A stretch of DNA of 64,000 bases from a virus. Location of the stretch: IMG/VR virus record IMGVR_UViG_3300049734_000086, positions 1 to 64,000 of that record; one strand, 5' to 3'. Below the pieces are notes generated by a model. That model searched no databases and had not been told where the DNA came from. It saw only the letters and a list, made by a program, of their open reading frames with translations. Shown here one piece after another: positions 5,035 to 58,515 of the stretch (within the stretch, counting starts at the first letter, position 1; the number at the start of each line of letters is the position of its first letter). A program made the position numbers and the translations under genes.

Positions 5035-8000
5035 CTAGGCGCTCCCCTTACCCGACGGCACACCGTTCAAGGCTTTGGCGACAGCGTCGATGACAGTGGT
5101 CTGCAGGCCGTTCTCGTCGCGGTCGAACTGGCCCGGGAACTCGGTACGGATGATGTCCATGACTTTGATCTTGGTGCCGGTGTCGACACTCTCCCCGGTG
5201 ACGACCACGACGGCGACGTTGTTGGTAGTCTTGCCTCCTGGGCCTCCAGGCGAGGTGATGGGGCCGCCGGTCCCAGGGCCGACCCCCGCGCCGGAGAGCG
5301 CCGAGCCGCCGCCGAACACCGGCATCAGGCCGTTGCGGGGCGTGAGGATCGAGGCGGAGAACGGGCTGAACTCCGGCGGGACGAACACGCCAGGACCCGT
5401 GTCGGGCAACCGGCGGTCGAGCACCCAGTTGCGGGTCGGGTCCGGCACTTCATCTGGGATCGAGCGGATCCGCCGAATCAGGTCCAGCACCGCATCGCCG
5501 GTATCGTGAATGGCCTGGGTCGTGGCGTCCGCGCCCCGTGGCCCGCTGATCTTCCACTGGTCCAGGGCCTCGGACGACTCCGCAATGAGCTGCGTATTCG
5601 CGTCGAGCGGGGTGCCCAGACTGGTCGCGTTGGCCCTGACCGCCTGGAGGGTGGACTGGAACCCCTCGACCTGTCCCTGGAGGCCCGCGATCACCCGGTC
5701 GGGGTTACCCTCGATGTCGACGGCCAGGGTGGTCGTGACTGAGGAGGGCAGGCTGCTCAGGGCGGTGGTGGCCAGATCGACGGCGGGCGCGGCACGAGTG
5801 GCGGCCGTGGTGGCCAGACTGTTCAGGGCATCTTCGGTCGCCCCGACCTGGGCCGCCGTCTCGCTCCAGGCGGCTGCGGCTTGGTTCGCCGCCGCTGTCG
5901 TGTGCTGGATGTCTCCAGGCCCGGGGAATGGCTGGGTCCCGGTGCCCTGGTCCGGGAGCCTCCGGTCGATGTCCCAGTTGCGGGTCGGGTCGGGGATCTC
6001 GTCCGGGATGCCTTTGAGCTGCCGGATCAGCGCCTTGATCGCCTCCACCATGTCGTTGATGCCGTTCCGCATCTCCTCGAACACGGTCGGGCCCTTGTCC
6101 TGCCAGATGCCCAGTTCCTTCGACTGCGCGATCATCTCGGCCGTCACCGGGTCCAGGGCCACGCCCAGATCCTTCGCCCGCTTCTCGGCCTCGTGCAGGT
6201 AGTCCTGCATCGGCATCAGGGCCGCCCGCTGATCGCCGCCAAGCTGCGCGACCTCGCCCTGGATCCGGCGGAACATATTGATGCCGGTGCGCTCCATGGC
6301 GCGGAAGGTGTCGACGTTCTGGTCGTTCATGTTGCCCAGGGCGATGAACGACTGGGTCAGGCCGGTGACTCCGTTGATGACCGACGGGATGCGGGTCAGC
6401 AGGTCGGACTGCATGACCAGACTCTTCAGCCCGGTGTCCTCGATGTTGATGCCGAGGTCCTTGTAGGCCTGCGAGATCTTCTGCAGCGCCGGTTGCGAGG
6501 CGGCCAGGGCCTCGTTGAAGGACAGGCCCGCGTTAAGGGCAGCGTTGAAGGTGCCGACGGCGATCACGCCCAGGTCGGCCAGTTCCTGCTTGGCACCCTC
6601 GGCGGCGTCGGCTTGGTCTTCCAGCGCCCGGGTCAGGGCGTCCTGATCGCCGCCCGACCGACTCAGCTCGCGGACCTTCTCCCCGAGGTCGTGCCACTTC
6701 TTGAACTGCTCGTCCAGGGCCCCGACGATGGCGTTGGACCCGGCGATGGCGGTGGAGGCTTGGTTCTTCAGCGCCTCGGTAATGGCCTTGGATTCGATCC
6801 CGGCCTCCCGCGCCATCTGCACGACTTCCTTCAGCCCCTCGACCCAGTGCCCCGCCGCGTCGACGCCGTGCTCGAACGCCTCGCCCCACACATCGTCGAT
6901 GAGCCGCCCGGCGGTCGCGACATCGATCTCCTTCTTCTCCAGCATGACGAACACGTCGAGAAGGTTGCGCCACGCTTCGACGTGTGGAGGGACCTGGGAC
7001 AGGACCTTCTGGATCTCCGCCATCGCCTCGGCGACACGCTTGGGGTTGTCGGTGTCCCACAGCTTTTGCACCACGGCTTCGGCCTCGGCGGCGGAGCGGC
7101 CGGTGGCGAGGTAGGCGTCACGCACGGCGATGAGGGTGCCCTTCCACCGCTCGTTCCCGGCTTCGAGCCTCTGCGTGAACCCGAGGGTGCCAATGAGCTG
7201 GTCCTGGTACTTCTCGCTCTCCTCCCGTGCCTTCTTGACCGCCTCACTGACCCCGAAGAAGTGCTTGGCCAGCATGAACACGCCGACTCCGGCCAGCCCG
7301 ATGCCTGCCGTGGCAGCACTGAGTCCGACCGCGCCCAGGGTGGTCGAGGCCATGGCCTTGCCGAATGCCGTGGTGGCCAGAGCAGCCCCGCCAATGGTGG
7401 AGACCGTGGAGCCGATCGCCGCACCCCACTGGCCCGCCGCCGCCCCACCCACAGCCGCTGCCGCTGCCGCCCCGGCGCTCACGGCCTTGAAGGCGTTCTT
7501 GATGGCCTCGGTGGCCTTGAGGAGCGGTTTGGCGATGGCGTCGGCGATCTGCATCCCGATAGCGGCGAAGGCCCCACCGACCCCACCGCCTCCGGTGAAG
7601 GCCTGGGAGAACAGATCGGGCAGGTCGGTGAGGAGTCCCTTGAGGTTGGCGCGGATCTGCTCGCCGGTCTCGTTCTTCTTTCCGCTCGTGGCGGTGTTCT
7701 GGAACAGGAACTTCTGGGCGGCCTCGTCGGCGGCAATCAACGCCTGCTCGGCCACGAAGGCCTGCTCGGCGATGGCCATGATCCTCCGCTCGGTGCCCGC
7801 CGGGTCGTCCTTGTGGCCCAGCATCGCCAGGGCGATCTCGGCCTGGGCCACGCGACGGAGCTGGAGGATCTTGAAGTTCGCCTCCGACATCGACTGCTGC
7901 ATGGCCTCGTCGGACATCGTGCGCTCGATGTCGCGGACACGGAGGGCGTTGGCGATGATGGCCTCGCCGATGCGCTTGGTCTGGACTTCCAGTTCCGCCG

Positions 8001-35836: not shown

Positions 35837-36110
35837 CGGCCGTAACTGACTCCGCCAGTCTGGCCAGCGTGTTCAGGGCGTCCCGCAACTGGCTCTCGAC
35901 GTTGGCCAGCCGCTTGTCGAACGCCGACAGGAGCCGGGTCTGCGCCTCCCCATCGGCCCGTACCCGTACCAGGTCGACCCGGATGCTGTCGACCGTGTTG
36001 GTCAGTCTGGCCAAGCGGTTCGTCGCGGCCCTGGTGTTGCGGAGCGTGGTGTCCTGGGGGTTGCGCTTCTTCTTCGGGGTCCGTGTCGGCGGCGTCATAG
36101 TCTCAGTCAC
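35829..36110 (-). CDS. coiled-coil hypothetical protein
   Basis: GGAGG RBS; heptad pattern. Confidence 0.65.
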   Translation of the reverse strand: MTETMTPPTRTPKKKRNPQDTTLRNTRAATNRLARLTNTVDSIRVDLVRVRADGEAQTRLLSAFDKRLANVESQLRDALNTLARLAESVTADD

Positions 36111-39959: not shown

Positions 39960-40169
39960 GGGGAATTAGGCTCCAGAATCAGGGGTCATCGACGGGTCTG
40001 GGCAGGCAGGGTAACAGGAATTCGGTGTTACCGGGTAGCCCTGGGCTGCCAGCGGGGTACTGCGGCGGGGTCTGGCAAGGGTACTGCGGGCCGGGCCAGG
40101 GAGGTCAGTTACTGGGCTCTGGGGCTTATGGCTGAGCTAGGTCCTGGCAGCCTGGAAAGTGTCTCAAAA

Positions 40170-40270
40170 TAGGACAGTCTGGCCTAGGTGGTTGGGTGTA
40201 TAATGTGGGCTTGTCTGGTCAGTCTGAGCCTTGATTGCAGCTACTGACCACGACGTGACAACTGAATCTG
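40170..40270 (+). promoter_or_regulatory. early promoter region
   Basis: TATAAT at 40199-40204 in a CG-free patch; CAGTCTGGCCTAG and ACAACTGAAT shared with the 56.9-57.0 kb region. Confidence 0.55.
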
Positions 40271-54093: not shown

Positions 54094-54982
54094 AGGCCAC
54101 ACGCAAGTCCGCGAACTCGAACTGCTGGTGGTGATGGACGGGGAGTTCACCCAGCGCATCGCCCCCACCACGCCCCAGCAGTGGCTCGACGCCCTGGTGA
54201 CGGAGTCCAATGTCTGGTGGGAGAGGGACCTGGGCATCCGGCTCAAGGTCGTCCGCCTCGACGCCTTTCCCGACCCGGCGACCGACCCGTTCACGGCGGC
54301 CACGGACAACCCACAGGGCACGCTCGACGAGATCTCGGCCTACGGCAATGCAGTCAGTACCCCCCGAGACGCCGCGCATCTGTTCACCGGCCGCGCGATG
54401 ATGTACGGCGGCTACACCTACGTCGGGGTGACGTGCAAGCACCCGGCGTTCAGTTATGGCTGGTCGCAGTTGGGGTTCTGGGGCTACAACTGGACGATTG
54501 CCGTGGCGAGCGTGGAGCTGGCCCACCAGTTGGCGGGTGTCTACTACGACAACATCCCGAGCTGTGACGGGGCCTTGTTGGGCAAAGGGCCAGCGCCGGA
54601 GGACTACCACCAGTACTGGTTCTGCGCCGCAGCCAAGGCCGACATCGACGCCCACTTGGCGGCCAACCCCCCATGTCTGACCACCGAGGGCGGACCCCCG
54701 CCCACCGACACGCAGTCCCCAGTGGTCAGTATCATCGAGCCGTCGGGCAATAGGATCCCGGCGGGCCCGACCTTCACCATCTCGGCCCAGGCCACCGACA
54801 ATGTCGCCGTGGCGCGGGTGGACATGGCGGTCAATGGCGTGCTGGCGTGTACCGACGACCTGTCGCCCTACGCCTGCACCGCCCCGCAGAACGCGAAGAA
54901 CAAGAACTACCGGATCGAGGTCCGCGCCTACGACACGGCGGGGAACGTCGGGACGGCCAGTAAGACGGTACGAGCACGATGA
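54035..54982 (+). CDS. secreted reprolysin-like pseudo-metalloprotease with Ig-like domain
   Basis: Signal peptide; RDAAHLFTG, G.TYVG..C; zinc motif altered to VELAHQLAGVYY; DT..P.V, ATDNVAV..V, AYDTAGN. Confidence 0.7.
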   Translation: MQPTRLALVTALVAVALTARGHTQVRELELLVVMDGEFTQRIAPTTPQQWLDALVTESNVWWERDLGIRLKVVRLDAFPDPATDPFTAATDNPQGTLDEISAYGNAVSTPRDAAHLFTGRAMMYGGYTYVGVTCKHPAFSYGWSQLGFWGYNWTIAVASVELAHQLAGVYYDNIPSCDGALLGKGPAPEDYHQYWFCAAAKADIDAHLAANPPCLTTEGGPPPTDTQSPVVSIIEPSGNRIPAGPTFTISAQATDNVAVARVDMAVNGVLACTDDLSPYACTAPQNAKNKNYRIEVRAYDTAGNVGTASKTVRAR

Positions 54983-55021
54983 GTCGGATGACCCGAATGA
55001 TCAAGGAGACGCGCAACCCCT

Positions 55022-55531
55022 ATGGCGAAGAAACCCCTACCCCCGATGCGGCACATGGTGCGGACCAGCGGCCCTGGTGCCCGCCCGATGACTAAGCCGA
55101 AGTCCGGCATCCAGAGCAAAGCGCAGAAGCAGGCCGAGGAGGACCTGGAGATGACGCCGCTGGAACTGGTCCAGCAGGCCGAGGTCGAACTGGCCAGTAT
55201 CGCCGCCAGCCGGAACGACCCGAAGAACGTCGAGTGGCGCAAGGCGCGGATGAAGTCGCAGCAGCAGATGGCCGACGCCAACAATACCGAGTACTGGTGC
55301 TGCGTGTGCTTCCAGAGCGAGGAGCAGAAACTGGACTTCCTGAAGCAGTCTGGCCTCCTCCGCCACGACGAGGACAAGTACTTCACCGCCCAGGAAGTCG
55401 TCGACGCATGGAACGAGGGGAGGAGCCGCAAGCCCCTGAAGTTGACAGCGGACAGTCGTGGGCACCATACTCTGCCGGTGAACCGGCGATGGTCGCGCTT
55501 CGCCATGCCCATTGAGGGGCCTGGGGAATAG
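55022..55531 (+). CDS. hypothetical protein, PAPS-reductase module
   Basis: TEYWCCVCFQS.EQK..FL; AAGGAG RBS. Confidence 0.7.
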   Translation: MAKKPLPPMRHMVRTSGPGARPMTKPKSGIQSKAQKQAEEDLEMTPLELVQQAEVELASIAASRNDPKNVEWRKARMKSQQQMADANNTEYWCCVCFQSEEQKLDFLKQSGLLRHDEDKYFTAQEVVDAWNEGRSRKPLKLTADSRGHHTLPVNRRWSRFAMPIEGPGE

Positions 55532-55596
55532 GTCGCGTCAAGGACCCAGCCGGTCAGAATGCTCACCCCGGAGCCAAGCGGGGAGGGAGACAGAAT

Positions 55597-55794
55597 ATGC
55601 AGTACGCATTCACCGGCAAAAATCTCGTGTCCATGGCGTGTGTCCCGGCGACGGGCGGGGGCCGTGGTGGCCGTCGGCGTCGAGCGGGTCGTCAACCGAA
55701 TGGCCGTCCCCTCCTGCGTGGGGCTGCGGCTCGGAGAAGTAACGCGGCGTTCCGGCGTCGACTTCTGAGACTCCAGGAGGCGGGGATCCGCTAA
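55597..55794 (+). CDS. Arg/Gly-rich small protein with 14-aa leader
   Basis: MQYAFTGKNLVSMA-CVPATGGGRGGRRRR; GGAGA RBS. Confidence 0.65.
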   Translation: MQYAFTGKNLVSMACVPATGGGRGGRRRRAGRQPNGRPLLRGAAARRSNAAFRRRLLRLQEAGIR

Positions 55795-55847
55795 CGGACT
55801 GAGGGCAGTCGGCAGTCGGCAACGGTCGACGGCCGCAGTCGGCGTAC

Positions 55848-55893
55848 AAGAAAAAACCCCTAACAGGTTCTAAGGGCCTGTTAGGGGTTTCTT
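55848..55893. terminator. bidirectional intrinsic terminator
   Basis: AAACCCCTAACAGG/CCTGTTAGGGGTTT stem with A/T tails between convergent units. Confidence 0.85.
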
Positions 55894-56086
55894 ACTCTGA
55901 GGGTTCAGCCAGTGGTCTACACTGCACTGGCCCTATAATCCTGCAGCATGTCTCAGGGCCCTGCAGTGGCCAGTACCAGAGGAATAGCAGGCCACAGAAG
56001 TTAATGGCCTGCCACTGCTCCACAGCTACTGTGATTGGGGATCCTAGGTTGGTCCTGTAGGTCAAGAGCTTAGGCTCGATTCTCAT
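55892..56086 (-). CDS. small protein in CG-free island
   Basis: ATGA-coupled; ends at terminator. Confidence 0.5.
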   Translation of the reverse strand: MRIEPKLLTYRTNLGSPITVAVEQWQAINFCGLLFLWYWPLQGPETCCRIIGPVQCRPLAEPSE

Positions 56087-56205
56087 CTCAGCACCTTGAT
56101 TGCTGGCATGTGCTTAGCCTGCCACTGGTCTACAGCCTGCCTTGCCCCAGTTGCCAGCATGGCAGCCAGGGCAACTAGGACAAGGCCCAGTGTTAGAGTT
56201 TTCAT
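56083..56205 (-). CDS. small hydrophobic peptide (40 aa), not in ORF track
   Basis: MKTLTLGLVLVALAAMLATGARQAVDQWQAKHMPAIKVLR; GGGAG RBS. Confidence 0.6.
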   Translation of the reverse strand: MKTLTLGLVLVALAAMLATGARQAVDQWQAKHMPAIKVLR

Positions 56206-56224
56206 TCTGTTCTCCCTTGGGTTG

Positions 56225-56276
56225 GTCAGACTGACCTAGCTGGGTTCTCTGCCTTTGGTACTGCCCCTGAGAGTGC
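56225..56276. repeat. inverted repeat, left arm
   Basis: 56249-56276 is the exact reverse complement of 56851-56878; 56225-56237 matches 56888-56900. Confidence 0.95.
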
Positions 56277-56458
56277 AGGTTAACTACTCTGACTCTGTGC
56301 CCCTGATCTCTAGCCAGTGGGTTGTACTGGCAGCCTTGATTGCCTCTGCAGGCCTTGCCATGGTTAGCAAGTCTGGTTGTTCGTCTGCTCTGTAGCACAG
56401 GCCACAGTAGCATCTAAGGGCCTGTAGTCTGGCCTTGGGGGTTCTCGACTGCAGCTTG

Positions 56459-56824
56459 CTACTTGAGCTTTGCTGTGATCTCAACATTGTCCAAGGTCCA
56501 GACTTGCCCTTTGTGACAAGGCAGGTTGGCCAGTGCTCTGTTGATGGCTGCAACCTGGTTAGCTGCTAGCTGCTTTGGCTGGAGGTAGTAGTTGTCCCCA
56601 TACTGGGAGGCAGCCTTGAGATCTGAGGCAAGTTCGGCACCCTGAAAAATCATAGAGTGCTTCTTCTTCCCCTTCTCCCCTGCCTTGGTTGCCTCTGTCC
56701 TAGCTGGCACCTTGCCCTTGGCTTGGACTGCCTTGCCCTTGCCCTTGGCTTGGACTGCCTTGACTGCCTTGCCCTTGCCCTTGCCCTTGTTCGACACTGC
56801 CTTAACTGGATTCTGCTTAGCCAT
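56459..56824 (-). CDS. Lys-rich putative nucleic-acid-binding protein
   Basis: KGKGKAVQA repeats; AGGAG RBS. Confidence 0.75.
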   Translation of the reverse strand: MAKQNPVKAVSNKGKGKGKAVKAVQAKGKGKAVQAKGKVPARTEATKAGEKGKKKHSMIFQGAELASDLKAASQYGDNYYLQPKQLAANQVAAINRALANLPCHKGQVWTLDNVEITAKLK

Positions 56825-56850
56825 TGGTCTCTACTCCTGAAATCTGAAAA

Positions 56851-56900
56851 GCACTCTCAGGGGCAGTACCAAAGGCAGGAACCTGTAAGGTCAGTCTGAC
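56851..56900. repeat. inverted repeat, right arm
   Basis: Partner of 56225-56276. Confidence 0.95.
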
Positions 56901-56906
56901 TTAGGT

Positions 56907-56975
56907 ATTCAGTTGTAAAGAGCATAGGCAGCCTACCATAGGCCTAGGAGGTCAGATGTTAAATCCATGTTAAAT
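56907..56975 (-). promoter_or_regulatory. promoter plus boxA-like element
   Basis: ATTTAACAT twice; TTAACA-16-TATGGT; TGCTCTTTACAACTGAAT. Confidence 0.5.
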
Positions 56976-57024
56976 GTGGCCTAGGTGGTCAGACTGTGCA
57001 GTCTGGCCTAGCTGGCCAGTTCTC

Positions 57025-57300
57025 GGCAGCCAGGGCCAGGGCCAGACATGGCAGCCAGGGCCCTAGGATGGCCCTAGGATGGCCAGGGCCAGGACACTAG
57101 CAGTCTGGCCAGGGAGGCAGCCAGGGCCCAAGGGCCAGGGCCAGGGCCCAAGGGCCAGGGCCAGGGCCCAAGGGCCAGGGCCCAAGGGCCAGGGCCAGGG
57201 CCAGGGCCAGGGCCAGGGAGGCAGGGAGGCAGGGAGGCACCATTGATCAGAGTTGGCAGCCAGGGCCAGGGCCAGGGCAGTAGTAGCAGTAGCAGGGCCC
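57025..57300 (+). repeat. (GGGCCA)n tandem array with GGGCCCAA and GGGAGGCA variants
   Basis: Directly visible; more than 20 GGG tracts. Confidence 0.95.
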
Positions 57301-57580
57301 TGAGACGCCCGTCACCACGCCCCACCGTCCCGCTGACGGCCAGGGTACGATTCGTCAATCGGGCAGCCAGGACCGCAGCCAGGACCGCCCGCGCACGCCC
57401 CAGACCCAAGCCCTACCGCTAGTGGTCCGGGCCGCTAAACCCCCCTACATTGTGGGACTTCCCACGGTCGGGCTTTCCCTCATACACTGCCGCTCGTTCC
57501 CATGCGACGGTCTCTCAATCGTCACGCTGGCCGCCCCACCTCTGCCCGGTCAGCGCCGCCCCTTCCCTGGAGCTACGTAC

Positions 57581-58135
57581 ATGCCGCGACACGCTTCGAC
57601 CAACGCCGACGACATCGACGCTCGGCGATCTCAGTACGCACCCGAGGACTTCATCATCCCGAGCAAGGACCATAAGGGCGACTCGGTGCGCGTCTGGAAC
57701 CGGATCCAACCGGGCCACGACCGCGCCGTGGCCGTCATCGTCGGCAGTAAGCGGTTCCCCTTCAAGACCCCTGGTGACTGCGTGCGCTGGTGCATCCATC
57801 GTGGGCTCAAGACCCTGGAGCAGATGGAGCCGGTCCCCAGCGTCACCCAGCAGCTCGACGCGATGATGGGGGCGCTGCGTGACGAGGAGTTCCACCAGGA
57901 GTTCCAGACCTTCATCCAGCACGCGCAGTCGGTGATCCAGCGCCACGTGACCGAGGGGTCGCACGGAGAGGCCCGGCGGCTCATCGCCACGCTCAAGGCG
58001 GAGGTCCTGAAGATGCCCAAGGGCTACTGGCGCGAGAAGTACCTCACGGCGATCCAGAGTCAGTTCAAGCACATCCTCGACGAGAAGCGGGCGCGCGTCC
58101 ACCTGCTCCGCGCCGTCGACGAGGACGAGTCGTGA
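57581..58135 (+). CDS. putative DNA-binding regulator
   Basis: GGAG RBS; FKTPGDCVRWCI.RGL (RHH-like, weak). Confidence 0.55.
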   Translation: MPRHASTNADDIDARRSQYAPEDFIIPSKDHKGDSVRVWNRIQPGHDRAVAVIVGSKRFPFKTPGDCVRWCIHRGLKTLEQMEPVPSVTQQLDAMMGALRDEEFHQEFQTFIQHAQSVIQRHVTEGSHGEARRLIATLKAEVLKMPKGYWREKYLTAIQSQFKHILDEKRARVHLLRAVDEDES

Positions 58136-58272
58136 ACTGGCTCCTCCTCTTTGCCTTCCTCGGTCTGATCTTCCAGGCCGTCAGTCCACTGGCGGTGATC
58201 CAGGACATGCTCATCCTGCTGGCGGCGGTGCTGCTGGTGCTGGCGGTGAGTGGGAGGAAGCCATGGGCGTGA
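58132..58272 (+). CDS. small membrane protein, not in ORF track
   Basis: GTGA-coupled; two hydrophobic segments. Confidence 0.5.
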   Translation: MNWLLLFAFLGLIFQAVSPLAVIQDMLILLAAVLLVLAVSGRKPWA

Positions 58273-58499
58273 GGAACAAGGCCGAATGGGCGGCCGAGAT
58301 GAACGGGGTCGCCGCCATTGTCCATCAGGCGATTCGTGGCGGGATGCGACTGGGACTGAGCCGGGAAGCGGCGGCGCTGGGGGCCCAGATCGGGGTCCTC
58401 AGCTTCATGCGCGTGGATGGCGTGAACGAGGACGATGTGATTCGGGAGGCCAAGAAGGCAGTGCCGGTCGGGCCTCCCGGACGGGTGACGCAGGTATGA
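58263..58499 (+). CDS. hypothetical protein
   Basis: GGAGG RBS. Confidence 0.6.
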   Translation: MGVRNKAEWAAEMNGVAAIVHQAIRGGMRLGLSREAAALGAQIGVLSFMRVDGVNEDDVIREAKKAVPVGPPGRVTQV

Positions 58500-58515
58500 C
58501 CGGCGGCGACGGCCG

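Follow-up and report, generated by a model that had tools for sequence, protein, structure and literature searches.

The window analyzed here, a stretch of 64,000 nucleotides (nt), corresponds to positions 1-64,000 of the 74,430-base-pair (bp) IMG/VR record IMGVR_UViG_3300049734_000086, a phage record with direct terminal repeats and 65% GC. The stretch around the unit described below is present in at least seven soil metagenome runs, and parts of the CpG-free island that contains this unit are present in 11 soil metatranscriptome runs. The phage terminase is at most 39% identical to those of known phages, with the best matches in phages of Proteobacteria, and the phage is only distantly related to known phages. 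Its genes lie on the minus strand up to ~40 kilobases (kb) and on the plus strand beyond. Within this plus-strand block sits the subject of the present analysis, a minus-strand unit in which two long complementary arms bracket the gene of a Lys-rich protein of 121 amino acids (aa). To judge from its sequence, the unit is a self-contained operon that begins with a promoter-like site and a boxA-like motif; arm 1, the 121-aa gene and a spacer follow, and beyond arm 2 come two small, membrane-type open reading frames (ORFs), which overlap, and a terminator. The parts listed in the original prediction (promoter, boxA-like motif, arms, 121-aa gene, spacer of ~180 nt and two small genes) were all found where it had placed them.

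Arms, predicted helix and enclosed cistron

Arm 1, the leader strand (56851-56900, minus strand), is made up of an outer 13-nt block (56888-56900), a 4-nt loop, a 5-nt segment (56879-56883) and a 28-nt perfect block (56851-56878). Arm 2, the trailer strand (56225-56276, minus strand), consists of the matching 28-nt perfect block (56249-56276), a bulged nucleotide (56248), a 5-nt segment (56243-56247), a 5-nt loop and the outer 13-nt block (56225-56237). The inner blocks form an inverted repeat of 28 nt with 100% complementarity (56249-56276 and 56851-56878), continued by an imperfect outer extension (56225-56248 and 56877-56900). In RNA, the arms would pair in the order 13 bp, a 4x5 internal loop, 5 bp, a 1-nt bulge and 28 bp. 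The perfect pairing over 28 and 13 bp around an internal loop, which had been claimed earlier, was confirmed and is complemented by the 5 bp and the bulge, giving 46 Watson-Crick pairs, no G.U pair and a duplex energy of -95.2 kcal/mol. Moreover, the pair probabilities of the arm helix reached 0.98-1.0 in a modelled transcript of 1079 nt. A perfect repeat of 28 nt is far beyond chance, and no second perfect long inverted repeat was found in the 64-kb window. As each arm is spanned by independent DNA and RNA contigs, all in the reference orientation, the arms are not an assembly artefact.

The interior between the arms measures 574 nt. Compared with shuffled sequences, folding of the 761-nt region gave a z of -8.0 and that of the 574-nt interior alone a z of -0.9, indicating that the excess structure comes from the arms, while the interior, as modelled, folds like an ordinary messenger RNA (mRNA). 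The arms enclose exactly one cistron and respect the ribosome-binding sites of both cistrons: the end of arm 1 and the AUG of the 121-aa gene are 27 nt apart, and arm 2 ends a few nt before the next Shine-Dalgarno sequence. For leader-trailer processing by RNase III, at least ~20 bp of double-stranded RNA formed by the flanking sequences are called for, and the arms offer 28 perfect bp and 46 bp in total. Perfect duplexes 28-33 bp long are, in general, substrates of RNase III. No RNase III gene was found in the phage record, and any cutting would thus be carried out by the host enzyme.

The inner 33 bp of the arms are non-palindromic and found nowhere else, and only these 33 bp are specific to the 121-aa gene. 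In addition to its long-range partner, the inner part of arm 1 has a local one, as it can form an alternative hairpin (56820-56876, minus strand) by pairing with the Shine-Dalgarno sequence AGGAG (56834-56838) and the AUG (56822-56824) of the 121-aa gene. This anti-ribosome-binding-site hairpin has an energy of -25.3 kcal/mol and a z of -3.7. In the model, the probability that the Shine-Dalgarno sequence is unpaired changes from 0.20 before arm 2 to 0.50 with arm 2 present.

The enclosed gene (56459-56824, minus strand) encodes a protein whose N-terminal half is disordered and rich in Lys, Gly and Ala and whose C-terminal part is a conserved domain of ~70 aa. The N-terminal half is encoded by AAGGGC-type repeats, and its Lys-Gly repeat region (56731-56789) is a length-polymorphic tandem repeat, one soil strain lacking 12 nt, in frame, at 56767. 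The protein had no Pfam, PHROG or Protein Data Bank (PDB) match, and its family is named by no library; its Atlas neighbours were uninformative, and its AlphaFold model (predicted local distance difference test score, pLDDT, 55) was too poor for a fold search. Relatives were found in metagenomes in at least eight clusters, one of them close (81% identical in the domain) and seven more distant. They share the C-terminal domain, in which the residues H, G, L, L, A, GD, L, QL and W are invariant, and differ in the N-terminus, which is basic and of low complexity (K/S/T/Q/A-rich, with very few Arg). The composition of the 121-aa protein would suit a role in nucleic-acid binding, which we offer as a guess. 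The protein and P0002-P0011 make up a small-protein family without a name, found only in metagenomes. Between the stop codon of the gene and arm 2 lies a spacer of 182 nt (56277-56458, minus strand), with no excess structure and no credible ORF, in which a strain variant differs at 9 of 151 positions.

Relatives of the locus as a whole were also sought. Exact words of the arm core occur neither in IMG/VR nor in a set of 185,579 representative genomes of bacteria and archaea, a search with the predicted sequence of a variant arm returned no match, and an 18-mer common to the reference and variant arms gave two chance matches, in unrelated low-GC contigs. The phage collection held no similar DNA or protein, and an Rfam search gave nothing above noise. 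In addition, no related locus was retrieved from viral, metagenome and genome collections via both flanking proteins, P0002 or the alignments A1-A3.

Promoter, boxA-like motif and presence in soil RNA

Upstream of arm 1, a sigma-70-like promoter candidate (TTAACA-16-TATGGT; 56935-56962, minus strand) is overlapped by two ATTTAACAT direct repeats and has a predicted start near 56928. The boxA-like motif TGCTCTTTACAACTGAAT (56907-56924, minus strand) follows, at ~+5 to +12 according to the predicted promoter, and carries the core GCTCTTTA at 56916-56923. The 8-nt boxA core recognized by NusB-NusE in E. coli is GCUCUUUA (PMC3177189, PMC13753749). The phage core reproduces the 8-nt E. coli rrn core exactly, and it is the sole copy in the 74,430-bp genome. 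The motif is of the E. coli type (UGCUCUUUAACA) and not of the B. subtilis type (AUGAUCUUUGAAA), a distinction taken from PMC13753749. Beyond the core the likeness weakens. The gamma-proteobacterial consensus for boxA is GYTCTTTAANA (PMC5725501), and GCTCTTTACAA agrees with it at 10 of 11 positions, with C instead of A at position 9, so that the full 11-nt consensus is missed. Moreover, the 13-mer of rrn boxA aligns to the motif only with three mismatches.

Two metatranscriptome runs from separate studies, picked because they contain the stretch, were compared over 54500-58500; these data are assembled contigs, carrying neither strand nor RNA-end information. Both RNA runs cover 56035-56905 and 55493-55874, and nothing was found in 56912-57700, while a DNA contig, unlike the RNA contigs, runs through 56654-57119. 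RNA libraries thus contain the unit to a greater extent than the genes next to it, and nothing more can be read from this coverage. In both RNA runs, contigs break in or beside arm 2, where DNA contigs continue. RNA ends could account for such breaks, as could a low library yield from a stable duplex or polymorphism among strains, and we give the breaks little weight; taking these breaks, or the missing RNA cover above 56905, as RNA ends was rejected, since contigs show no termini. A natural variant in arm 1 reads G>A at 56861 on the plus strand and hence C>U in the RNA; after this change a wobble pair would still be available, but solely in the minus-strand RNA, which would favour a role at the RNA level.

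Proposed processing of the first cistron and alternative readings

The order of the signals on the minus strand fits, as far as the sequence can tell, a function in RNA. Our best reading, to which we assign a probability of about one half, is that a leader-trailer RNA helix makes the first cistron an RNase III-excisable mRNA with paired ends. The analysis established the anatomy of the unit, the energetics of the arms, the occurrence of the unit in RNA libraries and the lack of those enzymes that rival explanations would need; we infer that the helix would form in vivo, be cut by RNase III, draw on Nus factors and influence translation. The minus-strand transcript would start near 56928-56960 and end at the terminator at ~55851-55893. 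Newly made arm 2 would pair with arm 1 in a 46-bp leader-trailer helix, leaving the first cistron as a closed loop. The perfect duplex would then be a target of host RNase III, whose cut would have three effects: detaching a short 5' leader, freeing the 121-aa mRNA with base-paired, exonuclease-resistant ends, and parting it from the downstream two-gene RNA, which would give both RNAs independent fates. Before arm 2 is made, arm 1 would pair locally with the Shine-Dalgarno sequence and the AUG, and completion or cutting of the helix would modestly raise translation; unmasking of the ribosome-binding site may, according to the model, be a secondary role of the helix. The boxA-like motif, if transcribed and bound by NusB/NusE, would tether the leader to RNA polymerase, and in that case Rho would be suppressed in the untranslated spacer and the distant arms would be helped to meet, as in the operons of ribosomal RNA (rRNA).

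Such rRNA operons, exemplified by E. coli rrn with its antitermination complex (rrnTAC, formed by NusB/NusE/NusA/NusG/SuhB/S4) and RNase III, share two features with the phage unit, namely a boxA core a few nt 5' of the leader strand and a long leader-trailer helix that encloses the product. The length of the arm helix is within the range of the 16S and 23S processing stems. The combination of boxA and a leader-trailer helix is, to our knowledge, regarded as a hallmark of rRNA operons, and we know of no other setting in which Nus-assisted bridging of distant RNA ends has been demonstrated. A boxA-tethered polymerase has been proposed to join the leader and trailer strands, boosting RNase III processing (PMC10250234, bioRxiv 10.64898/2026.03.17.712431). 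Unlike these operons, the predicted phage helix would enclose a translated 0.57-kb mRNA for the 121-aa protein and not an rRNA; it is perfectly Watson-Crick, it comes without a boxB hairpin or boxC, and it belongs to a phage.

Phages also provide partial precedents. The lambda pL-nutL-RNase III site-N leader carries a boxA and then an RNase III-sensitive structure controlling translation of the small basic protein encoded next, and the unit described here would likewise be a phage transcript that starts with boxA and continues with a putative RNase III structure ahead of a small basic protein. The lambda structure, however, is a local leader hairpin, whereas the soil-phage helix spans a gene. 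Moreover, lambda needs boxB and the N protein, whereas the Lys-rich 121-aa protein has no recognizable arginine-rich motif. In T7 early mRNA, host RNase III cuts between cistrons and leaves stable paired ends. Both cases concern a polycistronic phage RNA, with cutting between cistrons by the host enzyme proposed for the soil phage, but in T7 the sites between genes are formed by local hairpins that contain internal loops, and none of them is known to pair across a gene as the soil-phage helix would. Pairing between 5' and 3' untranslated regions (UTRs) is, in turn, known from bacterial mRNAs, namely S. aureus icaR (PMC3868564) and B. subtilis hbs (PMC5737220), in which, as proposed for the phage unit, the sequences on either side of one ORF pair with each other over the full cistron. 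In icaR, the Shine-Dalgarno region takes part in the duplex, which thereby becomes a substrate for RNase III (PMC3868564), while in hbs, the mRNA of a basic nucleoid protein, pairing modulates RNase access (PMC5737220). Both duplexes are short and imperfect (14 bp in hbs and a 7-nt UCCCCUG motif in icaR), whereas the phage helix has 46 bp and lies in a polycistronic transcript; furthermore, the icaR 3' UTR masks the Shine-Dalgarno sequence, whereas phage arm 2 is predicted to free it. The proposed mechanism would extend known RNase III and 5'/3'-UTR mechanisms and would not be a new kind of system. If true, it would mean that the machinery of rRNA maturation is open to phages as a means of excising and stabilizing a protein-coding message, and the unit would be a compact natural system of ~0.7 kb for co-transcriptional long-range RNA pairing competing with translation.

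Several observations weigh against this reading, and those concerning the boxA-like motif bear on its Nus component. From composition, ~1 copy of GCTCTTTA is expected per genome, and only the position of the core is consequently notable: it lies 15 nt 5' of arm 1, for which the probability is ~6e-4 for an 80-nt leader, judged after the fact. Inspection of the sequence around the motif revealed neither a boxB hairpin nor boxC. The start near 56928 leaves ~4 nt ahead of the motif, and the 15 nt between it and arm 1 (CAACUGAAUACCUAA) are not G/U-rich; the definition applied, boxB upstream and a G/U-rich boxC downstream of boxA, comes in part from PMC10250234. In addition, even the longest RNA contig reaches only to 56905 and leaves out the motif, which lies upstream of this point and may for this reason be outside the RNA or overlap a promoter. 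Nus recruitment through the boxA-like motif is plausible, with a chance of roughly one in three. The original interpretation as a whole, in which the phage borrows Nus antitermination and RNase III processing, is partly supported. In its fullest form, the transcript would be an rRNA-precursor-like phage mRNA: boxA would recruit the host Nus complex, the leader would be tethered until the trailer 0.6 kb away is made, and RNase III would excise a closed, end-paired mRNA, from a unit located in a CpG-free island and forming the part of the phage most visible in soil RNA, so that the cassette may provide an unusually long-lived transcript or evasion of nucleases or host defence. This full version seems to us decidedly doubtful.

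The remaining points against the reading concern the arms, and they are shared with an explanation at the level of DNA. That all 46 pairs are Watson-Crick would fit a DNA-level or recently homogenized repeat equally well. Each outer 13-bp block reads GGTCAG-W-CTGACC, a palindrome in which a 10-mer found throughout the genome is present twice, and the outer pairing may be a by-product of this shared motif. Moreover, a strain variant carries three changes within 6 nt of arm 1, two of which would open a small internal loop unless compensated in arm 2, which is uncovered in that run. It can be proposed that the arms and their palindromic caps bind a phage or host protein, for instance to loop and repress the promoter, without any recombination, or that they are a recent inverted duplication kept identical by gene conversion, in which case RNA pairing would be a by-product. 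The clustered three-change variant resembles a single templated event, the 10-mer of the outer blocks has 34 copies, it is found as a double copy for a third time upstream of the promoter, and further copies flank a TATAAT at ~40.2 kb. The inner 33 bp, however, are not instances of the shared motif, and a DNA-level role would leave unexplained both the placement of the arms around one cistron and the complementarity to its ribosome-binding site; besides, the duplex would form once transcribed, whatever its origin. We consider this explanation rather unlikely. If the repeat did act at the DNA level, the locus would still draw attention to a regulatory motif that lacks an explanation and to an expression island free of CpG, both in a soil phage that is uncultivated.

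A further alternative accepts the helix and dispenses with the cut. The helix could act as a clamp, shielding both ends of the first cistron from exonucleases or from entry of RNase E/J/Y, or only as the anti-anti-ribosome-binding-site partner of a translational switch, with the boxA-like motif being coincidental. The evidence for the helix and the anti-ribosome-binding-site hairpin applies here in the same way, the boxA core would be expected about once per genome by chance, and in hbs mRNA the 14-bp pairing modulates RNase Y access without RNase III (PMC5737220). This alternative has to contend with the modelled gain in accessibility of the ribosome-binding site, which is modest and which also weighs against our own reading. 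Furthermore, in a host that possesses RNase III, the enzyme would probably not spare a perfect duplex of 28-33 bp. Overall, an uncut helix appears unlikely, and we retain excision by RNase III as the preferred reading.

Circularization and inversion, both raised in the original prediction, are unlikely. A circularized mRNA found no support, and enzymatic circularization was rejected for the phage itself, as its record has neither an RNA ligase (RNA_ligase, PF09414) nor RtcB (PF01139), while a host ligase is possible. With respect to inversion, a site-specific recombinase would flip 56277-56850, a segment of ~575 bp, and switch the 121-aa gene off and on. Long inverted repeats flanking ~0.6 kb are indeed inverton-like, and the Hin, Gin and Cin systems and Bacteroides invertons likewise have inverted repeats around a few hundred bp. 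Contrary to these systems, the phage has no recombinase: the lack of an invertase noted for the window extends to the whole 74,430-bp record, in which no serine or tyrosine recombinase was found (no Resolvase, PF00239, or Phage_integrase, PF00589, domain, with positive controls detected). Furthermore, the contigs gave no inversion joints, and wherever a DNA or RNA contig from the three samples spans an arm boundary it has the reference orientation, which is weak evidence as contigs drop rare forms. Inversion would move no promoter and bring in no alternative gene, since the segment has neither a promoter nor a credible gene on the opposite strand, and the strand composition of the interior is uniform and matches minus-strand coding sequence. 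We see only a slim chance that the segment inverts. Finally, although terminal repeats of ~50 bp and a gene in a compositionally odd island could suggest a small mobile element, such as a miniature inverted-repeat transposable element or a passenger-carrying transposon that brought the gene, this is extremely unlikely, given that there is no target-site duplication (flanks CCTAA and CAACC), a single copy in the genome, no transposase, an arm core absent from the collections searched, and a CpG-free island reaching ~400 bp past each arm, so that the arms are not its borders. A retron, with a1/a2 repeats around msr-msd, was rejected as well, as the record has no reverse transcriptase (PF00078).

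The CpG-free island and its surroundings

Downstream of arm 2, the unit contains a 40-aa ORF (56083-56205, minus strand) with an N-terminal hydrophobic segment and GGGAGA upstream, whose stop codon overlaps the start of the next ORF (ATGA). This next ORF, of 64 aa (55892-56086, minus strand), also encodes a hydrophobic segment, and an AV(D/E)QWQA motif is common to both. Five of the eight strain differences in the 64-aa ORF are on third codon positions, which suggests that it is a real gene; a search for relatives found none. In one soil run, 11 of 165 positions differ in 55885-56049, the C-terminal half of this ORF, and contigs of several runs break at both edges of this segment. The unit ends with a hairpin with flanking A and T runs (55851-55893), its terminator, which probably also terminates the converging plus-strand transcript.

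This hairpin coincides with the lower edge of a sharply bounded CpG-free island of 1,462 bp (55844-57305), which has 6 CpGs against ~90 expected; the observed/expected ratio for CpG is 0.07 in the island and 0.96 elsewhere. GC content is 53% in the coding part of the island, where Arg is coded by AGR, and 72% in a hexamer-repeat tract. All six remaining CpGs read NCGA on the minus strand, five of them followed by (G)AAC. In addition, CTAG is enriched in the island, while enrichment in palindromes or restriction sites is weak (z ~2 for 4-mers). As to methylation or modification as a cause, no C5 or N4/N6 methyltransferase or TGT gene was found in the phage, and a literature search on CpG-free phage islands returned nothing relevant. 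The hexamer-repeat tract (57029-57300) is CpG-free, with GCCAGG and GGCCCT units and super-repeats of 20 and 34 nt; it has plus-strand GGG runs every 6 nt, and thus G-quadruplex potential, and is located between the island promoter and the diverging gene at 57422.

The 10-mer GGYCAGWCTG occurs in 34 copies in 74 kb, against ~1 expected, for example at 5812, 19682, 36000-36012, 40175, 40217, 56224, 56889, 56987-57008 and 57101. Thirteen copies are intergenic, and in gene leaders the word takes the form CAGWCTGACCA, 20-70 nt before start codons. Inside genes, copies are mostly in one codon phase, forcing the rare codons AGA/AGT. The strand polarity of the 10-mer is organized in blocks (plus at 1-32 kb, minus at 34-40 kb, plus at 44-54 kb and minus at 55-74 kb). 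Possible roles of the 10-mer are those of a word in promoters or operators, of a site of processing or of a polar signal resembling Chi. Two inverted copies form the near-palindrome GGTCAGACTG-TG-CAGTCTGGCC (56987-57008), 25-45 bp upstream of the -35 hexamer of the island promoter. The second-longest CpG-free stretch (159 bp, 40092-40251) surrounds the TATAAT at ~40199 on the plus strand; it is flanked by two copies of the 10-mer and shares the words ACCTAGGCCA and CCACATT with the island promoter region. As the main regulatory region at 40.1-40.25 kb is thus also CpG-poor and has words in common with the island, the latter looks native to phage regulation and not freshly imported.

As for its neighbours, the unit has on one side a reprolysin/Ig-like protein gene and a gene of no assigned function, and on the other side a gene of no assigned function and a helicase gene. 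The segment 55493-55874, covered by both soil RNA runs, is CpG-rich and lies between the gene at 55022-55531 and the shared terminator. Within it, an Arg-rich ORF of 65 aa is found on the plus strand (55597-55794), and the segment may be either a small gene with good expression or a 3' UTR that converges on the island.

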